Notes under the pieces: model-generated
Told to the model about the DNA's origin: nothing
Databases searched by the model: none
The model's input: only the letters and a program-made list of their open reading frames with translations
In this document: positions 6,995 through 52,813 of the stretch, piece after piece
Layout of the letters: every line of letters begins with the position of its first letter
How positions within the stretch are numbered: the stretch's first letter is position 1
Made by a program: the position numbers and the translations under genes
Assembly (NCBI GenBank): GCA_018816445.1
Contig: JAHIVO010000061.1
Coordinates: forward strand, 305-64,304
DNA length: 64,000 nucleotides
Direction: 5' to 3'
From: Patescibacteria group bacterium
GTDB lineage: Bacteria > Patescibacteriota > Patescibacteriia > UBA10025 > JAHIVO01

Positions 6995-7261
6995 ATGCCA
7001 AATTACGATGGTCAAGGTCCCGGATGGGGCGGCGGACCAGGCGCTGGCTGGGGATATGGTCCGTGCACCTGCCCGCCATTGGCTTCGCCAACAGGCGAAG
7101 GCAGGCGGGGCGCTGGTCGCGGTTGGGGACGCGGCTGGAGACGTAGAATTAAATGGAGTAAAGAGGATGAGATGAAAATGCTGGAAGATGAAGAAGCGGC
7201 TATAACAGAAGAGCTGGCTGAAATCCAAAAAGCCAAGCAGGAACTTAAAGCTGAACAATAA
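6995..7261 (+). CDS. Glycine-rich DUF5320-like protein with C-terminal coiled coil
   Basis: MPNYDGQGPGWGGGPGAGWGYGPC... followed by EDEMKMLEDEEAAITEELAEIQKAKQELKAEQ. Paralog at 21486-21806. The family assignment is from memory of the MPrgDGTGPmG...coiled-coil pattern. Confidence 0.55.
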   Translation: MPNYDGQGPGWGGGPGAGWGYGPCTCPPLASPTGEGRRGAGRGWGRGWRRRIKWSKEDEMKMLEDEEAAITEELAEIQKAKQELKAEQ

Positions 7262-7439
7262 CACCAGTCCCACTTGTTAATTGACAAGAATTAGGCTAGA
7301 GTATAAGAAAACAAGTGGGGCTAATTCTAGCCATTTAATTAAAATATCAAAATACAAAATTTAAATGGCAATTAATAATTTAGTTTTTAATTTTTTCAAT
7401 GTTATTTTCAATTTTTATAATTAAATTTTCATTTTTATT

Positions 7440-10568: not shown

Positions 10569-10672
10569 ATTCCTCCTTCGCCCTTCAGGCCACGGAGGAC
10601 TAGTAGTCTGGGGTAGTTCAATTGGTACCCCGTAAAGGATACGGGGCAGGCAACGCCGCAAGTCTATTAAAT

Positions 10673-10879
10673 TCTAGGGTAGTTTCCGCCAAAGGCGGAT
10701 CCGCCTATGGCGGACAATTGGCCCCGCCACAATGTTCTGGGATAGTTTAATTGGTAAAACCCTGCACTGTTAATGCAGTGATCCTGGTCCGAGTCCAGGT
10801 CCCAGAGTTTTGTGGCGGGGTAAAATAGAACGCTCCGCTGTTAACGGAGAGGTTGGAGGTCCAAGTCCTCCCCCTAGAG
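10673..10879 (+). tRNA. Outer tRNA-Asn (GTT)-like gene interrupted in the D-arm by ~135 nt that contain the complete inner tRNA-Asn
   Basis: Acceptor TCTAGGG (10673-10679) pairs with CCCTAGA (10872-10878). Anticodon stem CTCCG/CGGAG with loop CTGTTAA, T-arm GGAGG-TCCAAGT-CCTCC. D-stem GTTT (10682-85)/GAAC (10828-31). Insert clamped by CCCCGCCACA (10722-31)/TGTGGCGGGG (10811-20). Confidence 0.35.
10736..10807 (+). tRNA. tRNA-Asn (GTT), inner gene of a nested pair
   Basis: Cloverleaf by hand: acceptor TCTGGGA/TCCCAGA, D-stem GTTT/AAAC, anticodon stem CTGCA/TGCAG with loop CTGTTAA, T-arm CCTGG-TCCGAGT-CCAGG. 72 nt, no encoded CCA. T-loop has C at position 55, which is unusual. Confidence 0.65.
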
Positions 10880-11134
10880 TTCAGCGGGTAGATAAGTTAA
10901 CGGTAGTTTAGGTTCGCCCAATCATCCGATTGGGCGCCCCGTCGTATGACGGGGCAAGCCCTCCCCCTAGAGTTCGTCAGGTAGTTAAATTGTATAATAT
11001 TTTGGTTCGCCGTGAACCACTAAAGGGTTCACGGCGCCATGTACCCTTGAGTGGTACATGGCGATCCCAGCCCCCAGAGTTTAGCAGGCTTGTCCCGTAG
11101 GAGCGTCAGCGACTTACGGGATTCGAATCCTGCT

Positions 11135-11446
11135 CCCCGAGCCAATTGCCGAAAGTGACAACTTCTGTGGATAAGTCATAAAAGCCTTTAAATATCGGGT
11201 GAAAGTTGTACCCACTAGTTTTCTGTTTCGCAACTAAAATCTCCCCACCCAAGTAGGATTCGAATTTCTCATTCTTTTTAGCCTAAAATTCTTCCTTGTC
11301 CATCAGCAGTTTGAAGAGGTTTATAAGGTTTTCAGCCATGAGCCAGGCTTCGTCATCCGATATTTCTTCCCCATATTGCTTTTTGTAGATTTCCTTGAAT
11401 TTATCTATGTGATGTTGTTCAAGAGGCATTGATATCACCCCCTCAC
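11135..11446. repeat. Direct repeat copy 1 (~312 bp, ~90% identical to 15443-15756), encodes a 48-aa ORF
   Basis: Hand alignment of the two copies. They bracket the DGR-containing modules. Confidence 0.8.
11283..11429 (-). CDS. Conserved 48-aa protein (MPLEQHHIDKFKEIYKKQYGEEISDDEAWLMAENLINLFKLLMDKEEF)
   Basis: Strong RBS GAGGGGGTGATATCA before the ATG. The two copies differ at 12 nt but only 1 aa, which indicates purifying selection. Below the 60-aa track cutoff. Confidence 0.6.
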   Translation of the reverse strand: MPLEQHHIDKFKEIYKKQYGEEISDDEAWLMAENLINLFKLLMDKEEF

Positions 11447-21485: not shown

Positions 21486-21806
21486 ATGCCAAGACAAGAT
21501 AGTCAAGGTCCCAGATGGGGCGGCGGTCCAGGCGCTGGTTGGGGCATGGGACCCTGCGGTGCAGGTTGGGGTGGCGGCCCATGTTTCGGTAGAGGTGGAA
21601 GGCGAGGCCGAGGACGCGGCATGGGCTGGGGTTTCATGCCCAGCAGAATGTACGGCGGATATAATTACGGCTACCAACTAAGCAAGGATGACGAGCTGAA
21701 AATGATAGAAGATGAGGAAGCAGCCCTTAAAGGTGAGCTTGAGGCCTTACAGCAGGCCAAGCAGCAATTGCGATCCGAAAAAAATCCGCCAAAAGCGGGC
21801 AAGTAA
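21486..21806 (+). CDS. Glycine-rich DUF5320-like protein with C-terminal coiled coil (paralog of 6995-7261)
   Basis: MPRQDSQGPRWGGGPGAGWGMGPCGAGWGGGPC... followed by ELKMIEDEEAALKGELEALQQAKQQL. Confidence 0.55.
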   Translation: MPRQDSQGPRWGGGPGAGWGMGPCGAGWGGGPCFGRGGRRGRGRGMGWGFMPSRMYGGYNYGYQLSKDDELKMIEDEEAALKGELEALQQAKQQLRSEKNPPKAGK

Positions 21807-49899: not shown

Positions 49900-50706
49900 A
49901 TGAATATTCTTCATTCAGCTTATCCAAATTATGTTGCTTTTTCACTATTTGGCCTGGATATCCGCTGGTATGGAATAATTCTGGCCTTGGCCATACTTAT
50001 AGGTTTTATACTCATTTTAAAAATAGCCAAAGAAAAGCAGGTTGATACGAACCATTTCTACAACCTGTTTTTCTTATTTGTTTTTTTTGGCTTAGTTGGC
50101 GGCCGGCTTGGTCATGTAATTGCTGAATGGAGTTATTATTGTACTAACCTTTTGCAGATACCTAAAATATGGGAAGGAGGATTAGCAATACATGGGGTTA
50201 TAATTGGCAGTATTATCACGCTATTTTTATACAGCAGATACAAGAAAATATCATTTTGGCTGATATCAGATATAATTATTGTTATCTTACCTCTGATGCA
50301 GGCTATTGGCCGCTGGGGGAATTATTTTAATCAGGAGATATTTGGTACGCCTAGTAATTCAGCCTGGAGCATTCCTATTGCTCAAATCAACAGACCAGCT
50401 GGATTTGAAAGTTATGAGTTTTTTCATCCGTTATTTTTATATGAGTCAGGTTTGATGCTTTTAGTATTTTTAATAATGGTGTTATTATTCAGATCTGAAA
50501 AATTAAAAACAGGGCAGTTAACTCTGGTATATTTTATCTTATTTTCTGTAGTTAGATTTTGTCTTGAATTTCTGCGTATTGAGGCGCCAGTAGTTTGGTG
50601 GTTGAATCTTGGCCAGTGGGTAAGTCTGTTATTTTTTGTAATGCCGCTGATTATTTTGTTACGGAAGTCGGGTCAGATCAGAAAGGGTAAAGTGCCAGTA
50701 CAATAA
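49900..50706 (+). CDS. lgt: Prolipoprotein diacylglyceryl transferase Lgt
   Basis: Lgt signature GRWGNYFNQEIFG. Confidence 0.8.
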   Translation: MNILHSAYPNYVAFSLFGLDIRWYGIILALAILIGFILILKIAKEKQVDTNHFYNLFFLFVFFGLVGGRLGHVIAEWSYYCTNLLQIPKIWEGGLAIHGVIIGSIITLFLYSRYKKISFWLISDIIIVILPLMQAIGRWGNYFNQEIFGTPSNSAWSIPIAQINRPAGFESYEFFHPLFLYESGLMLLVFLIMVLLFRSEKLKTGQLTLVYFILFSVVRFCLEFLRIEAPVVWWLNLGQWVSLLFFVMPLIILLRKSGQIRKGKVPVQ

Positions 50707-51205
50707 ATAATCCTAAATATAAAATTTGAATGGCTACTCCCAAACCACTGGGGGTAATTTTTTTATTGACTAGGCTATCAATATAATTATGAATTTTTCG
50801 GTGGTGGTTGAGTATCCTTTCCAGCTGTGACTTAACCATAGGATAACGAAAAACCCTAAATTGTTCAAAGTATCTTTTATACAGTTCATAGATAACCCAA
50901 AGCACGTCCGGCAGCATGCCGCCGATTATGGCAGCCGCGAATATCGGGGCGGAGGGGAAGGCCATTTTCTGCGATAAAGTGAAAAAGAAAATGGTAATTA
51001 AGATTATGTCAGTAAAGAATACCGTAATGGCGCGTTTGAAATATGATCCACGCTTAATCCATTCGTCTATCGGCTTATCGCCATGAGGCACAAGATCAAG
51101 CAGGTAATGTGATAATAAGGAAATAAAAAAAGCCCACCAGGGACTGGGAGTATGCTGACTTATTACTACACTAGCTAAAACGTGCGTAGTAGCAAACATA
51201 CATAC
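50678..51205 (-). CDS. DUF457-like membrane-bound metal-dependent hydrolase
   Basis: HVLASVV...HYLLDLVPHGD motifs. Start set at the internal Met. The longer track ORF runs into the GC-rich tRNA-flanking segment. Confidence 0.45.
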   Translation of the reverse strand, partial: VCMFATTHVLASVVISQHTPSPWWAFFISLLSHYLLDLVPHGDKPIDEWIKRGSYFKRAITVFFTDIILITIFFFTLSQKMAFPSAPIFAAAIIGGMLPDVLWVIYELYKRYFEQFRVFRYPMVKSQLERILNHHRKIHNYIDSLVNKKITPSGLGVAIQILYLGLFIVLALYPF

Positions 51206-51240
51206 ATTATTGTTAATGATTTTATATTTGTCAACTAAAG

Positions 51241-51258
51241 TAGCAGGGGGGGGATTCT
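51241..51258. repeat. 18-bp duplicate of the tRNA-Met 3' end (GTAGCAGGGGGGGGATTC)
   Basis: Identical to 51450-51467 inside tRNA-Met. About 190 bp of GC-rich, hairpin-rich sequence lies between the copies. Confidence 0.6.
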
Positions 51259-51446
51259 CGTCCTGGGCAGCGGTAATAGAATCACTTTTCCCGGGGTGCC
51301 ACGGCGGTTCCCGCACCGTGCCACCCGCGTTCGCGGCCTCGACTGAAACTATTCAGTCGCTCTTCTCCGCTCACGCCCCGTTCGAATCCATTTATTTTAA
51401 TATACTCGTGTTGTTTTAATCTGTTTTGGATTTAAAAATTGGCTTA

Positions 51447-51684: not shown

Positions 51685-51927
51685 TTAAATTAATCTTTTA
51701 TTCATAAAAGCTATACCAGATCCTGACTTTAAATACCTTTCAAAGGTTAATGCTTTCTGTTTGGTAGTAAAAACGCAATAAAAGATTAATTTCCAAGGTT
51801 TATATTTTGCAGAATAAGTAGTACTTTTTGAGTTATGTTTTTTAAGGCGCTGCTGTAGATTAGTGGTATATCCTTTATATATCATTTTTGGATATTTTAT
51901 ACTCCTTAATATATAAACTATATGCAT
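51685..51927 (-). CDS. GIY-YIG nuclease family protein
   Basis: MHIVYILRS...IYKGYTTNLQQRLKKHN. Confidence 0.55.
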   Translation of the reverse strand: MHIVYILRSIKYPKMIYKGYTTNLQQRLKKHNSKSTTYSAKYKPWKLIFYCVFTTKQKALTFERYLKSGSGIAFMNKRLI

Positions 51928-52194: not shown

Positions 52195-52387
52195 CTCCTT
52201 TCCTCGCAAATATCTCTTAACTTTTAGCTTGGATTTTTTTATTTAGTTAAAATCAAAGTATCTCTAGTATTATAAGTTATTAAAGATAAAATAGCAAGGT
52301 TTAGGTATTTATTGGTGCCGGGAGAGACCCCGTATAATTTCTCACTACGTTCAAAATATACGGGGCAGGGAGTCTCACTAATTCACA

Positions 52388-52569
52388 TGCCGAAGGTGGG
52401 AGTCGAACCCACACGAGGTTGCCCTCATGCGATTTTGAGTCGCACGCGCCCGCCTGCCTCTGCCGAGAGGGAGAGTCGAACTCCCATGAGGTTGCCCCCG
52501 CAGGATTTTGAGTCCTGTGCGTCTACCAGTTCCGCCATCTCGGCAAAGGCAGGCGGGCGCCACTTCGGC
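52388..52569 (-). tRNA. Outer tRNA-Leu (CAA)-like gene with the D-arm replaced by a 13-bp clamp helix that carries the inner tRNA-Leu
   Basis: Acceptor GCCGAAG (rc 52563-69)/CTTCGGC (rc 52389-95). Clamp GCGCCCGCCTGCC/GGCAGGCGGGCGC. Anticodon stem TGCGA/TCGCA with loop CTCAAAA, T-arm GTGGG-TTCGACT-CCCAC. Confidence 0.4.
52461..52544 (-). tRNA. tRNA-Leu (CAA), inner gene of a nested pair
   Basis: Acceptor GCCGAGA/TCTCGGC, D-arm GCGGAACTGGTAGACGC, anticodon stem CAGGA/TCCTG with loop CTCAAAA, 15-nt variable arm, T-arm GGGAG-TTCGACT-CTCCC. 84 nt. Confidence 0.75.
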
Positions 52570-52813
52570 TTATTAACTATTTCGCTAATTACGTCTACCA
52601 ATGGAGTTTATCCCGTACTTGGAGTGGTAGCGACATAGTACGGGACCATCCCGGCATGTAGTTATTTGAATGAATCAGCCATTAAAATATATTAGGCCCC
52701 TCGCTTGCGCTCGGGGTGAGTTTGTTGAGTTGATCAACAAACTCAATTCTAAATAAAAACGCTGTTTTTGTCAATGAATATTTGCTATAATATACGTATC
52801 AATTTACCAATAT

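Follow-up and report, generated by a model that had tools for sequence, protein, structure and literature searches.

The DNA analysed here, referred to as the window, is a 64,000-nucleotide stretch of contig JAHIVO010000061.1 from a Patescibacteria group bacterium (assembly GCA_018816445.1), and it contains on its minus strand, at 52569-52388, a transfer RNA (tRNA) gene for leucine nested inside a second tRNA-Leu sequence with the same anticodon. The inner sequence, which we call layer 0, is the working gene, a canonical 84-nt tRNA-Leu(CAA) at 52461-52544 (minus strand) with a complete cloverleaf, a class II variable arm, the CAA anticodon and A73; CCA is not encoded. The Rfam model RF00005 recognised it with 57.4 bits (gathering score 29), and ARAGORN also called a tRNA-Leu(caa), in agreement with the initial annotation of this DNA. 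The surrounding 'outer gene', layer 1, is split into two minus-strand pieces. Its 5' piece (52561-52569) consists of the acceptor strand GCCGAAG (52569-52563) and TG and is followed by the left clamp GCGCCCGCCTGCC (52548-52560, minus strand), which combines the outer D-stem strand GCG with a trimmed left palindrome arm and leads through TTT into the inner gene. Beyond the inner gene and a GA dinucleotide lies the right clamp GGCAGGCGGGCGC (52446-52458, minus strand), made of the right palindrome arm and the outer D-stem strand CGC. The 3' piece (52388-52445) then supplies, in this order, a G, the CAA anticodon arm TGCGA-CTCAAAA-TCGCA (52444-52428), a long variable arm, the T arm GTGGG-TTCGACT-CCCAC (52412-52396) and the acceptor strand CTTCGGC with A73 (52395-52388). 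The outer acceptor, anticodon stem and loop, variable arm and T arm as well as the 13-bp clamp had all been described in the initial annotation and were recovered at the same minus-strand positions.

Inner and outer sequences differ by compensatory pairs, as had been noticed before, in the acceptor stem (GCCGAGA/TCTCGGC inside versus GCCGAAG/CTTCGGC outside), the anticodon stem (CAGGA/TCCTG versus TGCGA/TCGCA) and the T stem (GGGAG/CTCCC versus GTGGG/CCCAC). The clamp and the inner acceptor stem make up the longest inverted repeat of the 64-kb window (26 nt, 92% complementary). Among the 22 tRNAs of the window and 80 control loci, flanking stems of at least 7 bp were found only here (14 bp) and at a tRNA-Asn locus of the same window (11 bp). 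The minimum-free-energy fold of 52569-52388 is a nested double cloverleaf (-108.4 kcal/mol, z = -8.8), which none of 200 shuffled sequences equalled. The inverted repeat, the flanking-stem comparison and the fold bear out the earlier view that the arrangement is no coincidence. The open reading frames (ORFs) over the nested region are translations of tRNA sequence, hence spurious as had been proposed, and the insert contains no other ORF. ARAGORN reported two tRNA-Leu(CAA) calls (52460-52545 and 52388-52463), the latter being a mis-registered truncation of the outer shell.

The outer copy has kept all its stems and has lost the D-loop including G18 and G19. RF00005 gave no match to the outer copy (52569-52388) even at E <= 10. 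After removal of the insert in silico, ARAGORN found no tRNA and recognised the sequence only when an 11-nt D-loop was supplied, which shows that the rejection is due to the missing D-loop. The outer sequence had been taken for a functional gene; at this locus that view did not survive, as the tRNA models rejected the sequence also with the insert treated as an intron. We compared the locus with loci of relatives, denoted below by L numbers. Over both pieces, layer 1 matches the active tRNA-Leu(CAA) of L100 at 68 of the 73 retained nucleotides (93%), and the sole gap in this alignment is the 11-nt D-loop of L100. Its 5' end (acceptor strand and TG) is identical both to the active L100 allele and to the tRNA-Leu(CAG) of the window's own genome, and its last 30 nt are identical to that plain, uninterrupted tRNA-Leu(CAG), which lies on the one further contig of the same genome that was analysed (GCA_018813575.1; L110). 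These matches show that the outer copy carries the native Leu sequence of this genome, and on this comparison it is the dead shell of the lineage's previous resident tRNA-Leu(CAA). Its counterparts in L003 and L004 are decayed, and so are the shells in L096, L097, L100 and L106. Extra hairpins occupy the D-loops of the L096, L097 and L106 shells and, in L096 and L097, also the anticodon stem. Every locus examined holds exactly one uninterrupted cognate tRNA.

The boundaries of the insert fall inside the 13-bp helix, which is perfectly paired throughout, and show no bulge-helix-bulge motif, which would consist of two 3-nt bulges flanking a 4-bp helix. In L083 a single large bulge is made up by the D-loop. 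Rfam scans of the window and the locus listed tRNA only and gave no group I or group II intron or ribozyme match in the insert, and a group I or II intron was rejected on that basis. No known RNA family was found for the outer part, the arms or the hairpins; one weak Y-RNA-like match merely reflects their likeness to tRNA.

Outside layer 1 lies a third layer. The initial annotation was right in describing two nested genes and fell short in stopping at two, since an older shell of GCCGGGA type is preserved at 52655-52592 and 52375-52313. Its 5' fragment (52592-52655, minus strand) reads GCCGGGATGG, then a 35-nt hairpin TCCCGTACT...AGTACGGGA (52645-52611), then TAAACTCCATTGGTAGACG, and continues after the hairpin as ...CTCCATTGGTAGACG. 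L002 and L098 have the acceptor of this fragment in their plain active gene, and fragment and hairpin are also present in L003. An AT-rich 22-nt spacer (52570-52591, minus strand), absent in L003 and L004, separates the 5' ends of layers 2 and 1. The 3' fragment (52313-52375, minus strand) is a T-arm remnant composed of AGACTCCCTG, a 38-nt hairpin CCCCGTATA...TATACGGGG (52365-52328) and TCTCTCCCGGCA followed by CCA; it has orthologues with the hairpin in L003 and L097, and the changes in the stem are compensatory. Layer 2 has no anticodon arm at all. The locus is thus a three-layer stack of tRNA-Leu(CAA) in which the innermost copy (52544-52461) is the only intact gene, and the fold of 52660-52310 consists of three concentric shells (-165.9 kcal/mol, z = -8.2).

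Upstream of the entire array lies a promoter-like site, TTGACA-17-TAGAAT (52746-52774, minus strand; 11 of 12 matches), at which the block TTGACAAAAACAG is kept in relatives, and no terminator-like site was found on the minus strand inside the array. Judged from these signals, the array is probably transcribed as one long precursor from the promoter-like site at 52774-52746. The leader between promoter and first tRNA fragment contains two conserved hairpins, 52716-52697 (minus strand) and 52739-52715 (CCCCGAGCGCAAGCGAGGGG, GAGTTTGTTGATCAACTCAACAAACTC), which also occur in L096 and L097 and weakly resemble the GA-cis RNA model at a sub-threshold 15.3 bits. Hairpins with CCCCGT/TCCCGT-type ends are restricted, within the window, to the Asn and Leu loci.

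In the clamp, the two ends of a dispersed GC-rich palindromic element, CCTGCCCGCC...GGCAGGCGGG, are lengthened by the outer D-stem strands GCG and CGC. These ends, which are terminal inverted repeats, are conserved in five copies that enclose a tRNA, hereafter cassettes, and in two copies without cargo. Arms and inner tRNA are conserved as a unit in the five aligned cassettes, which occupy two unrelated sites: in the window, L003 and L004 a tRNA-Leu(CAA) locus upstream of parA, and in L083 and L106 a tRNA-Leu(CAG) locus between an SBP_bac_5 gene and the gene for RNase J. The arms of the relatives read CCTGCCCGCCTCTGCC and GGCA(nn)GGCAGGCGGG and are bulged, whereas those of the window are trimmed and perfectly paired. 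The inner tRNA of the window differs by a single substitution from that of L003 and likewise from that of L004. Its acceptor and T arms are unlike those of the outer copy, and it shares 76 of its 84 nt with the GCCGGGA-type genes that are active in other lineages (L098). The CAG and CAA cargos have their acceptor, D and T arms in common and differ in the anticodon and variable arms, with a CAG anticodon arm typical of that clade.

L083 defines the insertion most precisely. Its 122-nt insert sits exactly between the last base of the D-loop (GGCAGA) and the D-stem strand CGC, and without the insert the sequence is a complete 87-nt tRNA-Leu(CAG) with CCA. The orthologous CAG sites of L107 and of the genome to which the window belongs (L110) are empty and hold a plain gene. 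Loaded with a tRNA, the palindromic element interrupts tRNA-Leu genes for two different anticodons, which lie at unrelated loci, at one and the same position, between the final D-loop base and the 3' strand of the D-stem. A second cassette family, with the arms CACTACCCA/TGGGTAGTG and another inner allele, occupies the same D-loop/D-stem junction in L096 and L097. The idea that inner alleles resist cleavage by differing around the insertion site was unconvincing, as the inner sequence TTGGCAGACGC of cassette (b) is almost the same as its target.

One cargo-free copy of the element lies on the plus strand at 7070-7109, where CCTGCCCGCC ATTGG CTTCGCC AACA GGCGAAG GCAGGCGGG stands in frame within a DUF5320 ORF (6996-7262); the DUF5320 paralogue at 21486-21806 lacks the palindrome. 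This in-frame palindrome resembles the in-frame insertions of Rickettsia palindromic elements. The other cargo-free copy is in L097 (3404-3438), in the spacer between parA and parB, within a different, small element made of two hairpins. This double-hairpin element, CCGCCAAAGGCGG-ATCAGCCTCTGGCTGA, has intergenic copies at window 27842-27808 (minus strand), L097 3390-3460 and L007 around 1131. Since it is intact at window 27842-27808 and interrupted by the Leu-arm palindrome in L097, the elements nest inside one another. The view that the solo hairpins are deleted cassettes (acceptor-stem minihelices) is neither supported nor excluded by the sequences.

The window is part of a bacterial chromosome of the Patescibacteria (Candidate Phyla Radiation), as it encodes ParA/ParB, TopA, Lgt, SufB and FeoB. 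The best ParA matches are 75-78% identical, among them Ca. Kerfeldbacteria (75%), and among 5.8 billion proteins no relative exceeded 78% ParA identity. An organelle or phage origin of the window was rejected on the strength of these genes and of the ParA protein, whose closest matches are from Patescibacteria. No viral contig contained the 3' 25-mer of the inner tRNA, which speaks against phage carriage, and a phage link through a 17-mer of one hairpin family came down to a single chance match in a coding region.

The gene order tRNA-Met, tRNA-Met, tRNA-Leu(CAA), parA is conserved, and at this syntenic CAA locus the close relatives (window, L002-L004, L095-L104) use five different active alleles, named here by their acceptor strands. 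GCCGGGA is the active allele in L002, L098, L102 and L104, where the gene is plain and without relics. GCCGAAG is active in L100 and L101, with a 3' relic of another allele after the gene, and GCCGCCG in L095, with relics before it. GCCGCGG (L096, L097) and GCCGAGA (window, L003, L004) are active in nested loci. More distant relatives (L001, L005-L007) add further alleles or share these. Simple tandem tRNA-Leu genes, which the initial annotation had named as comparative counter-evidence, were not seen in relatives; these have a plain single gene or nested or relic arrays of their own. Fragments of tRNA beside tRNA genes are frequent in the clade (Leu-CAA, Leu-CAG, Asn, Met) and rare and weak in control loci of other phyla.

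Turnover at this locus is visible between strains. L095 and L096 have identical ParA and flanks of 99.5-100% identity, yet carry a 635-nt and a 340-nt segment, respectively, between the conserved promoter block (-35) and the anticodon loop of the tRNA. In the L095 segment, a 5' tRNA relic occurs twice, and its two copies enclose an 83-amino-acid (aa) GIY-YIG ORF. By this replacement of 340 nt by 635 nt, an imported 5' half and the resident 3' half have been combined into an intact GCCGCCG-type tRNA-Leu(CAA), and on this pattern a relic half may have been put back into service. L108 contains three tandem 5' relics, then a GIY-YIG ORF, then the active gene. The GIY-YIG ORFs of L095 and L108 are homologous to one in the window and are bracketed by duplicated relic and hairpin segments. 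All are 80-87 aa long, UPF0213-type and limited to the catalytic domain.

Taken together, these observations point to a palindromic element that carries a replacement tRNA and colonises the cognate gene, which we regard as the probable explanation of the locus. By direct comparison, the outer resident gene of the window was split at the D-arm by a palindrome-armed cassette with a working cognate tRNA, after one earlier round at the same place. We infer the mobility of the cassette from its presence at two unrelated loci, from empty versus filled orthologous sites, from the shared insertion position and from the cargo-free arms. The mobile unit would be 'arm - tRNA - arm' (about 110-122 nt). 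Its insertion into a single-copy essential tRNA gene would be lethal unless the cassette supplied a working cognate tRNA, so that only insertions of cognate into cognate would survive, a viability filter. Alternatively, the shell halves of the donor locus could act as homology arms that steer the cassette to the cognate gene. The disrupted resident copy would then decay and gather cargo-free hairpins, and the next invasion would strike the new working copy and thereby produce concentric shells. The inner tRNA would be cut from the array transcript by ordinary 5' and 3' processing and would have its CCA added by an enzyme, while leader and trailer would pair through the arms into a helix. The symmetry of the window clamp would reflect secondary trimming, in which the D-loop and CCTG were lost on the left and ~7 nt on the right. 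The only candidate enzyme seen is the small GIY-YIG (UPF0213) nuclease encoded in the relic arrays.

Several points weigh against this explanation. No target-site duplication was found at any junction examined (L083, which is restored with normal length and an 11-nt D-loop; L097; window 7070), and no transposase or recombinase was identified among the window ORFs that were scanned. The CAA copies of the window, L003 and L004 could share one ancestral insertion, so that the clearly independent case is the CAG locus (L083, L106). The mosaic of CAA and CAG cargos seems to require recombination with resident genes, and the cassette model leaves unexplained how a tRNA entered the centre of the palindrome. 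The four helices of the outer copy are all still perfect in the window, unlike those of the L003 and L004 shells, which could mean that the insertion is recent, that the Leu(CAG) paralogue has converted the outer copy or that some function remains. Finally, relic hairpins keep their pairing through compensatory changes between species ~25% apart in ParA (window, L003 and L097; for Asn, window and L113), which hints at selection or at self-correction of palindromes.

A possible alternative, to which we give a clear minority of our confidence, is GIY-YIG homing, in which a nuclease cuts the resident tRNA gene and repair from a donor, with its shell halves and conserved flanks as homology arms, co-converts the linked tRNA; the palindrome arms would then be passengers. 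There is a precedent in phage T4, where SegB, a free-standing GIY-YIG homing endonuclease encoded in a tRNA cluster, recognises a conserved T-loop motif, with cleavage shown experimentally, and drives the co-inheritance of neighbouring tRNA genes in an 'intronless homing' of the T4 tRNA region (PMC2330249). As in T4, GIY-YIG ORFs lie here among tRNA genes, and several relics are broken in T-loops. Such ORFs occur in or beside the relic arrays of the window, L095, L096 and L108, and, among loci with gene tables, none was called in the plain L098, L102, L104, L107 and L110. The sole strain-level swap, that of L095 versus L096, brings in a GIY-YIG ORF and ends in the conserved -35 block and the anticodon loop, and mosaic alleles break in the T-loop and the anticodon loop. 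Unlike SegB, however, the putative nucleases seen here (80-87 aa) consist of the catalytic domain only, without a DNA-binding domain, and T4 has no described nesting or palindromic arms. Moreover, the window cassette contains no ORF, and one has to go ~0.5 kb, to the tRNA-Met cluster, for the nearest GIY-YIG gene. The 5' homology arm would be no more than ~12-23 nt long, and homing leaves the cargo-free arms in a protein gene and in the parA-parB spacer unexplained. A viability filter or homology-guided homing, the latter perhaps triggered by the GIY-YIG nucleases, could each account for the cognate-in-cognate pattern.

It is unlikely that shells and arms are retained for a function at the RNA level, with helices that guide the processing of the long precursor or prevent its misfolding; such a function would add to an insertional origin. 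The concentric fold of 52660-52310, the single promoter without an internal terminator, the trimming of the window arms to a perfect helix where those of relatives are bulged, and the compensatory upkeep of relic hairpins between species all fit this proposal. However, the plain loci (L002, L098, L102, L104, L107, L110) do without any such structure, L003, L004 and L108 have lost or scrambled parts of their shells, and repair at the DNA level alone can preserve the symmetry of a palindrome.

Still less can be said for a functional outer gene, in which the inner tRNA would be an intron-like insert and the outer product a spliced or two-piece tRNA held together by the 13-bp helix; we consider this very unlikely. 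Its acceptor, anticodon, variable and T helices are perfect, A73 is present, the outer copy of L083 is a complete tRNA without its insert, and two paired halves would remain once RNase P and RNase Z had cut out the inner tRNA. Against this stand the lost D-loop with G18 and G19, the rejection by both ARAGORN and Rfam, the absence of a bulge-helix-bulge motif and of a group I intron match, the decay of the outer copies in L003, L004, L096, L097 and L106, the oldest shell without an anticodon arm, and the intact cognate tRNA that is always present and makes the outer copy redundant. We know of no splicing endonuclease in bacteria. Of the mechanisms offered in the initial annotation, mobility or replacement is favoured by the comparative data, whereas split-tRNA biogenesis is not sustained, given the rejected outer sequence and the decayed outer copies of relatives.

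We attach hardly any credence to a purely local origin, in which the resident gene was copied on the spot by replication slippage or fold-back repair, followed by divergence of the copies, with no mobile element involved. Inner and outer sequences do share the anticodon and the class II design, and fold-back synthesis can make palindromes. Yet they differ in every stem, the inner being nearer to L098 (76/84) and the outer matching L100 and the genome's own Leu(CAG), and the same arms with the same inner body recur at an unrelated locus elsewhere, as do the arms alone. An assembly or binning artefact has practically no chance of being the explanation: every sequence stems from a metagenome assembly, and the locus is broken in two Logan contigs obtained from other runs, yet the parts that these contigs cover are identical, 440 nt around the locus are 100% identical in two full-length independent assemblies, the NCBI metagenome-assembled genome (MAG) GCA_018813575.1 (contig JAHJBL010000107.1) and one European Nucleotide Archive (ENA) assembly, and related architectures occur in many assemblies. 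This identity across independent assemblies settles in its favour the earlier claim that the locus is not misassembled.

The palindromic cassette invites comparison with several known systems. Integrase-encoding islands and prophages that target tRNA genes repair the gene by supplying its 3' part from a copy of their own. The cassette shares with them the tRNA gene as target, incoming DNA that keeps the tRNA functional and a displaced fragment that remains. It differs in its size of about 110-122 nt, in lacking an integrase and in supplying a complete tRNA rather than a 3' segment. Furthermore, its site is the D-loop/D-stem junction and not the anticodon loop, the T-loop or the 3' end, its bounds are inverted rather than direct repeats, and both 5' and 3' fragments of the old gene are left around the insert. 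We know of no short palindromic repeat family with a complete functional gene in the centre of its hairpin, or of one that replaces the gene it disrupts. In other respects the element is like repetitive extragenic palindromic sequences (REP/REPIN), miniature inverted-repeat transposable elements (MITEs), Rickettsia palindromic elements, mitochondrial GC clusters and hairpin repeats (PMC2800124, PMC4478555), being a dispersed GC-rich palindrome that has cargo-free copies, is found once in a protein gene and nests in hairpins. Terminal inverted repeats are present as in MITEs, but a target-site duplication and, among the window ORFs scanned, a cognate transposase were not found. Only two copies of the element were seen in the 64 kb, whereas REP/REPIN families have many near-identical ones.

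Archaeal split, permuted and multi-intron tRNAs (PMC3218864) are similar in that a GC-rich helix joins two halves, the D-arm is interrupted and tRNA finders miss or mis-call the genes. Unlike them, the locus has no bulge-helix-bulge and no outer D-loop, its halves decay in relatives and an intact copy is present. In Patescibacteria themselves, self-splicing group I introns interrupt tRNA genes, tRNA-Asn among them, in the anticodon loop at position 35/36 (PMC13011429). The phylum, the preference for tRNA genes and the inclusion of tRNA-Asn are the same here, but here a palindrome with a tRNA inside has inserted at the D-arm, without a group I signature, and that study does not mention nested tRNAs or hairpins. 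Nor did we find, in the full-text literature searched, any description of nested, embedded or replaced tRNA genes in bacteria. The locus looks like tRNA-targeting mobile DNA of a new form that is a member neither of the integrative elements nor of the palindromic repeats.

We put forward, more tentatively and as something short of our favoured expectation, that such loci represent an unrecognised class of selfish DNA: tRNA-carrying palindromes that rescue their own insertion into the cognate single-copy essential gene, replace that gene serially with dead concentric shells left behind, and drive rapid horizontal turnover of tRNA alleles (Leu-CAA, Leu-CAG, Asn and probably Met) in Patescibacteria, possibly with the help of miniature GIY-YIG nucleases. 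Genes for tRNAs are commonly regarded as slow, vertically inherited markers and, for large integrative elements, as passive landing sites. At this locus, insertions that brought their own replacement appear to have overwritten an essential tRNA gene at least twice, and the active alleles differ among related genomes, even between strains with identical ParA. If the cassette is mobile, this would be a new way for selfish DNA to inhabit an essential gene, by carrying a whole substitute, in contrast to introns and inteins, which splice out, and to islands, which copy the 3' end of the gene. It would also explain horizontal sweeps of tRNA sequences through genome-reduced bacteria. In practical terms, nested loci yield spurious ORFs and duplicate or truncated tRNA calls and would thus distort the tRNA counts used in MAG quality checks. 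The stacks of relics would be a record of past gene replacements that can be mined across thousands of MAGs.

The same design recurs on the plus strand of the window, as the initial annotation had reported, at a sister locus spanning 10598-11135. There, a tRNA-Asn(GTT) (10735-10808) with the arms CCCCGCCACAA/TTGTGGCGGGG lies inside the D-loop of an outer tRNA-Asn and is accompanied by hairpin-bearing relics. The outermost 5' fragment, TCTGGGG..., belongs to an allele that is active in the relative L113, and at least three further relics have T-loops split after GGTT by single or double hairpins. One of these relic hairpins reads CGCCGTGAACC-ACTAAAG-GGTTCACGGCG, and members of its family are found in the Leu relics of L095, L106 and L108.

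Between the two tRNA-Met genes next to the Leu array lies the window's GIY-YIG ORF (51685-51927, minus strand; 80 aa, UPF0213-type), the candidate driver. It is ~0.5 kb from the array, and no such ORF lies inside the cassette. Its flanks form a 34-nt direct repeat (52056-52023 and 51682-51648; 27/35 identical), each copy of which is able to form a hairpin. Each tRNA-Met is preceded by a conserved, covarying hairpin of ~60 nt (52196-52133 and 51590-51529, minus strand; z = -5.0 and -7.2) that ends 5 nt before the tRNA and matches no Rfam family; judged from sequence and fold, it may serve as a leader in processing or regulation or be a further element. A tRNA-Met 3' relic, GAGAATCCCCCCCCTGCTAC (~51253-51234, minus strand), follows the active gene (51523-51447) at a distance of 190 nt, and the stretch between the two contains GC-rich hairpins (51400-51290). 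Because of this relic, the true start of the listed ORF 50678-51316 is probably a later one near 51204, following a TTGACA promoter-like site.

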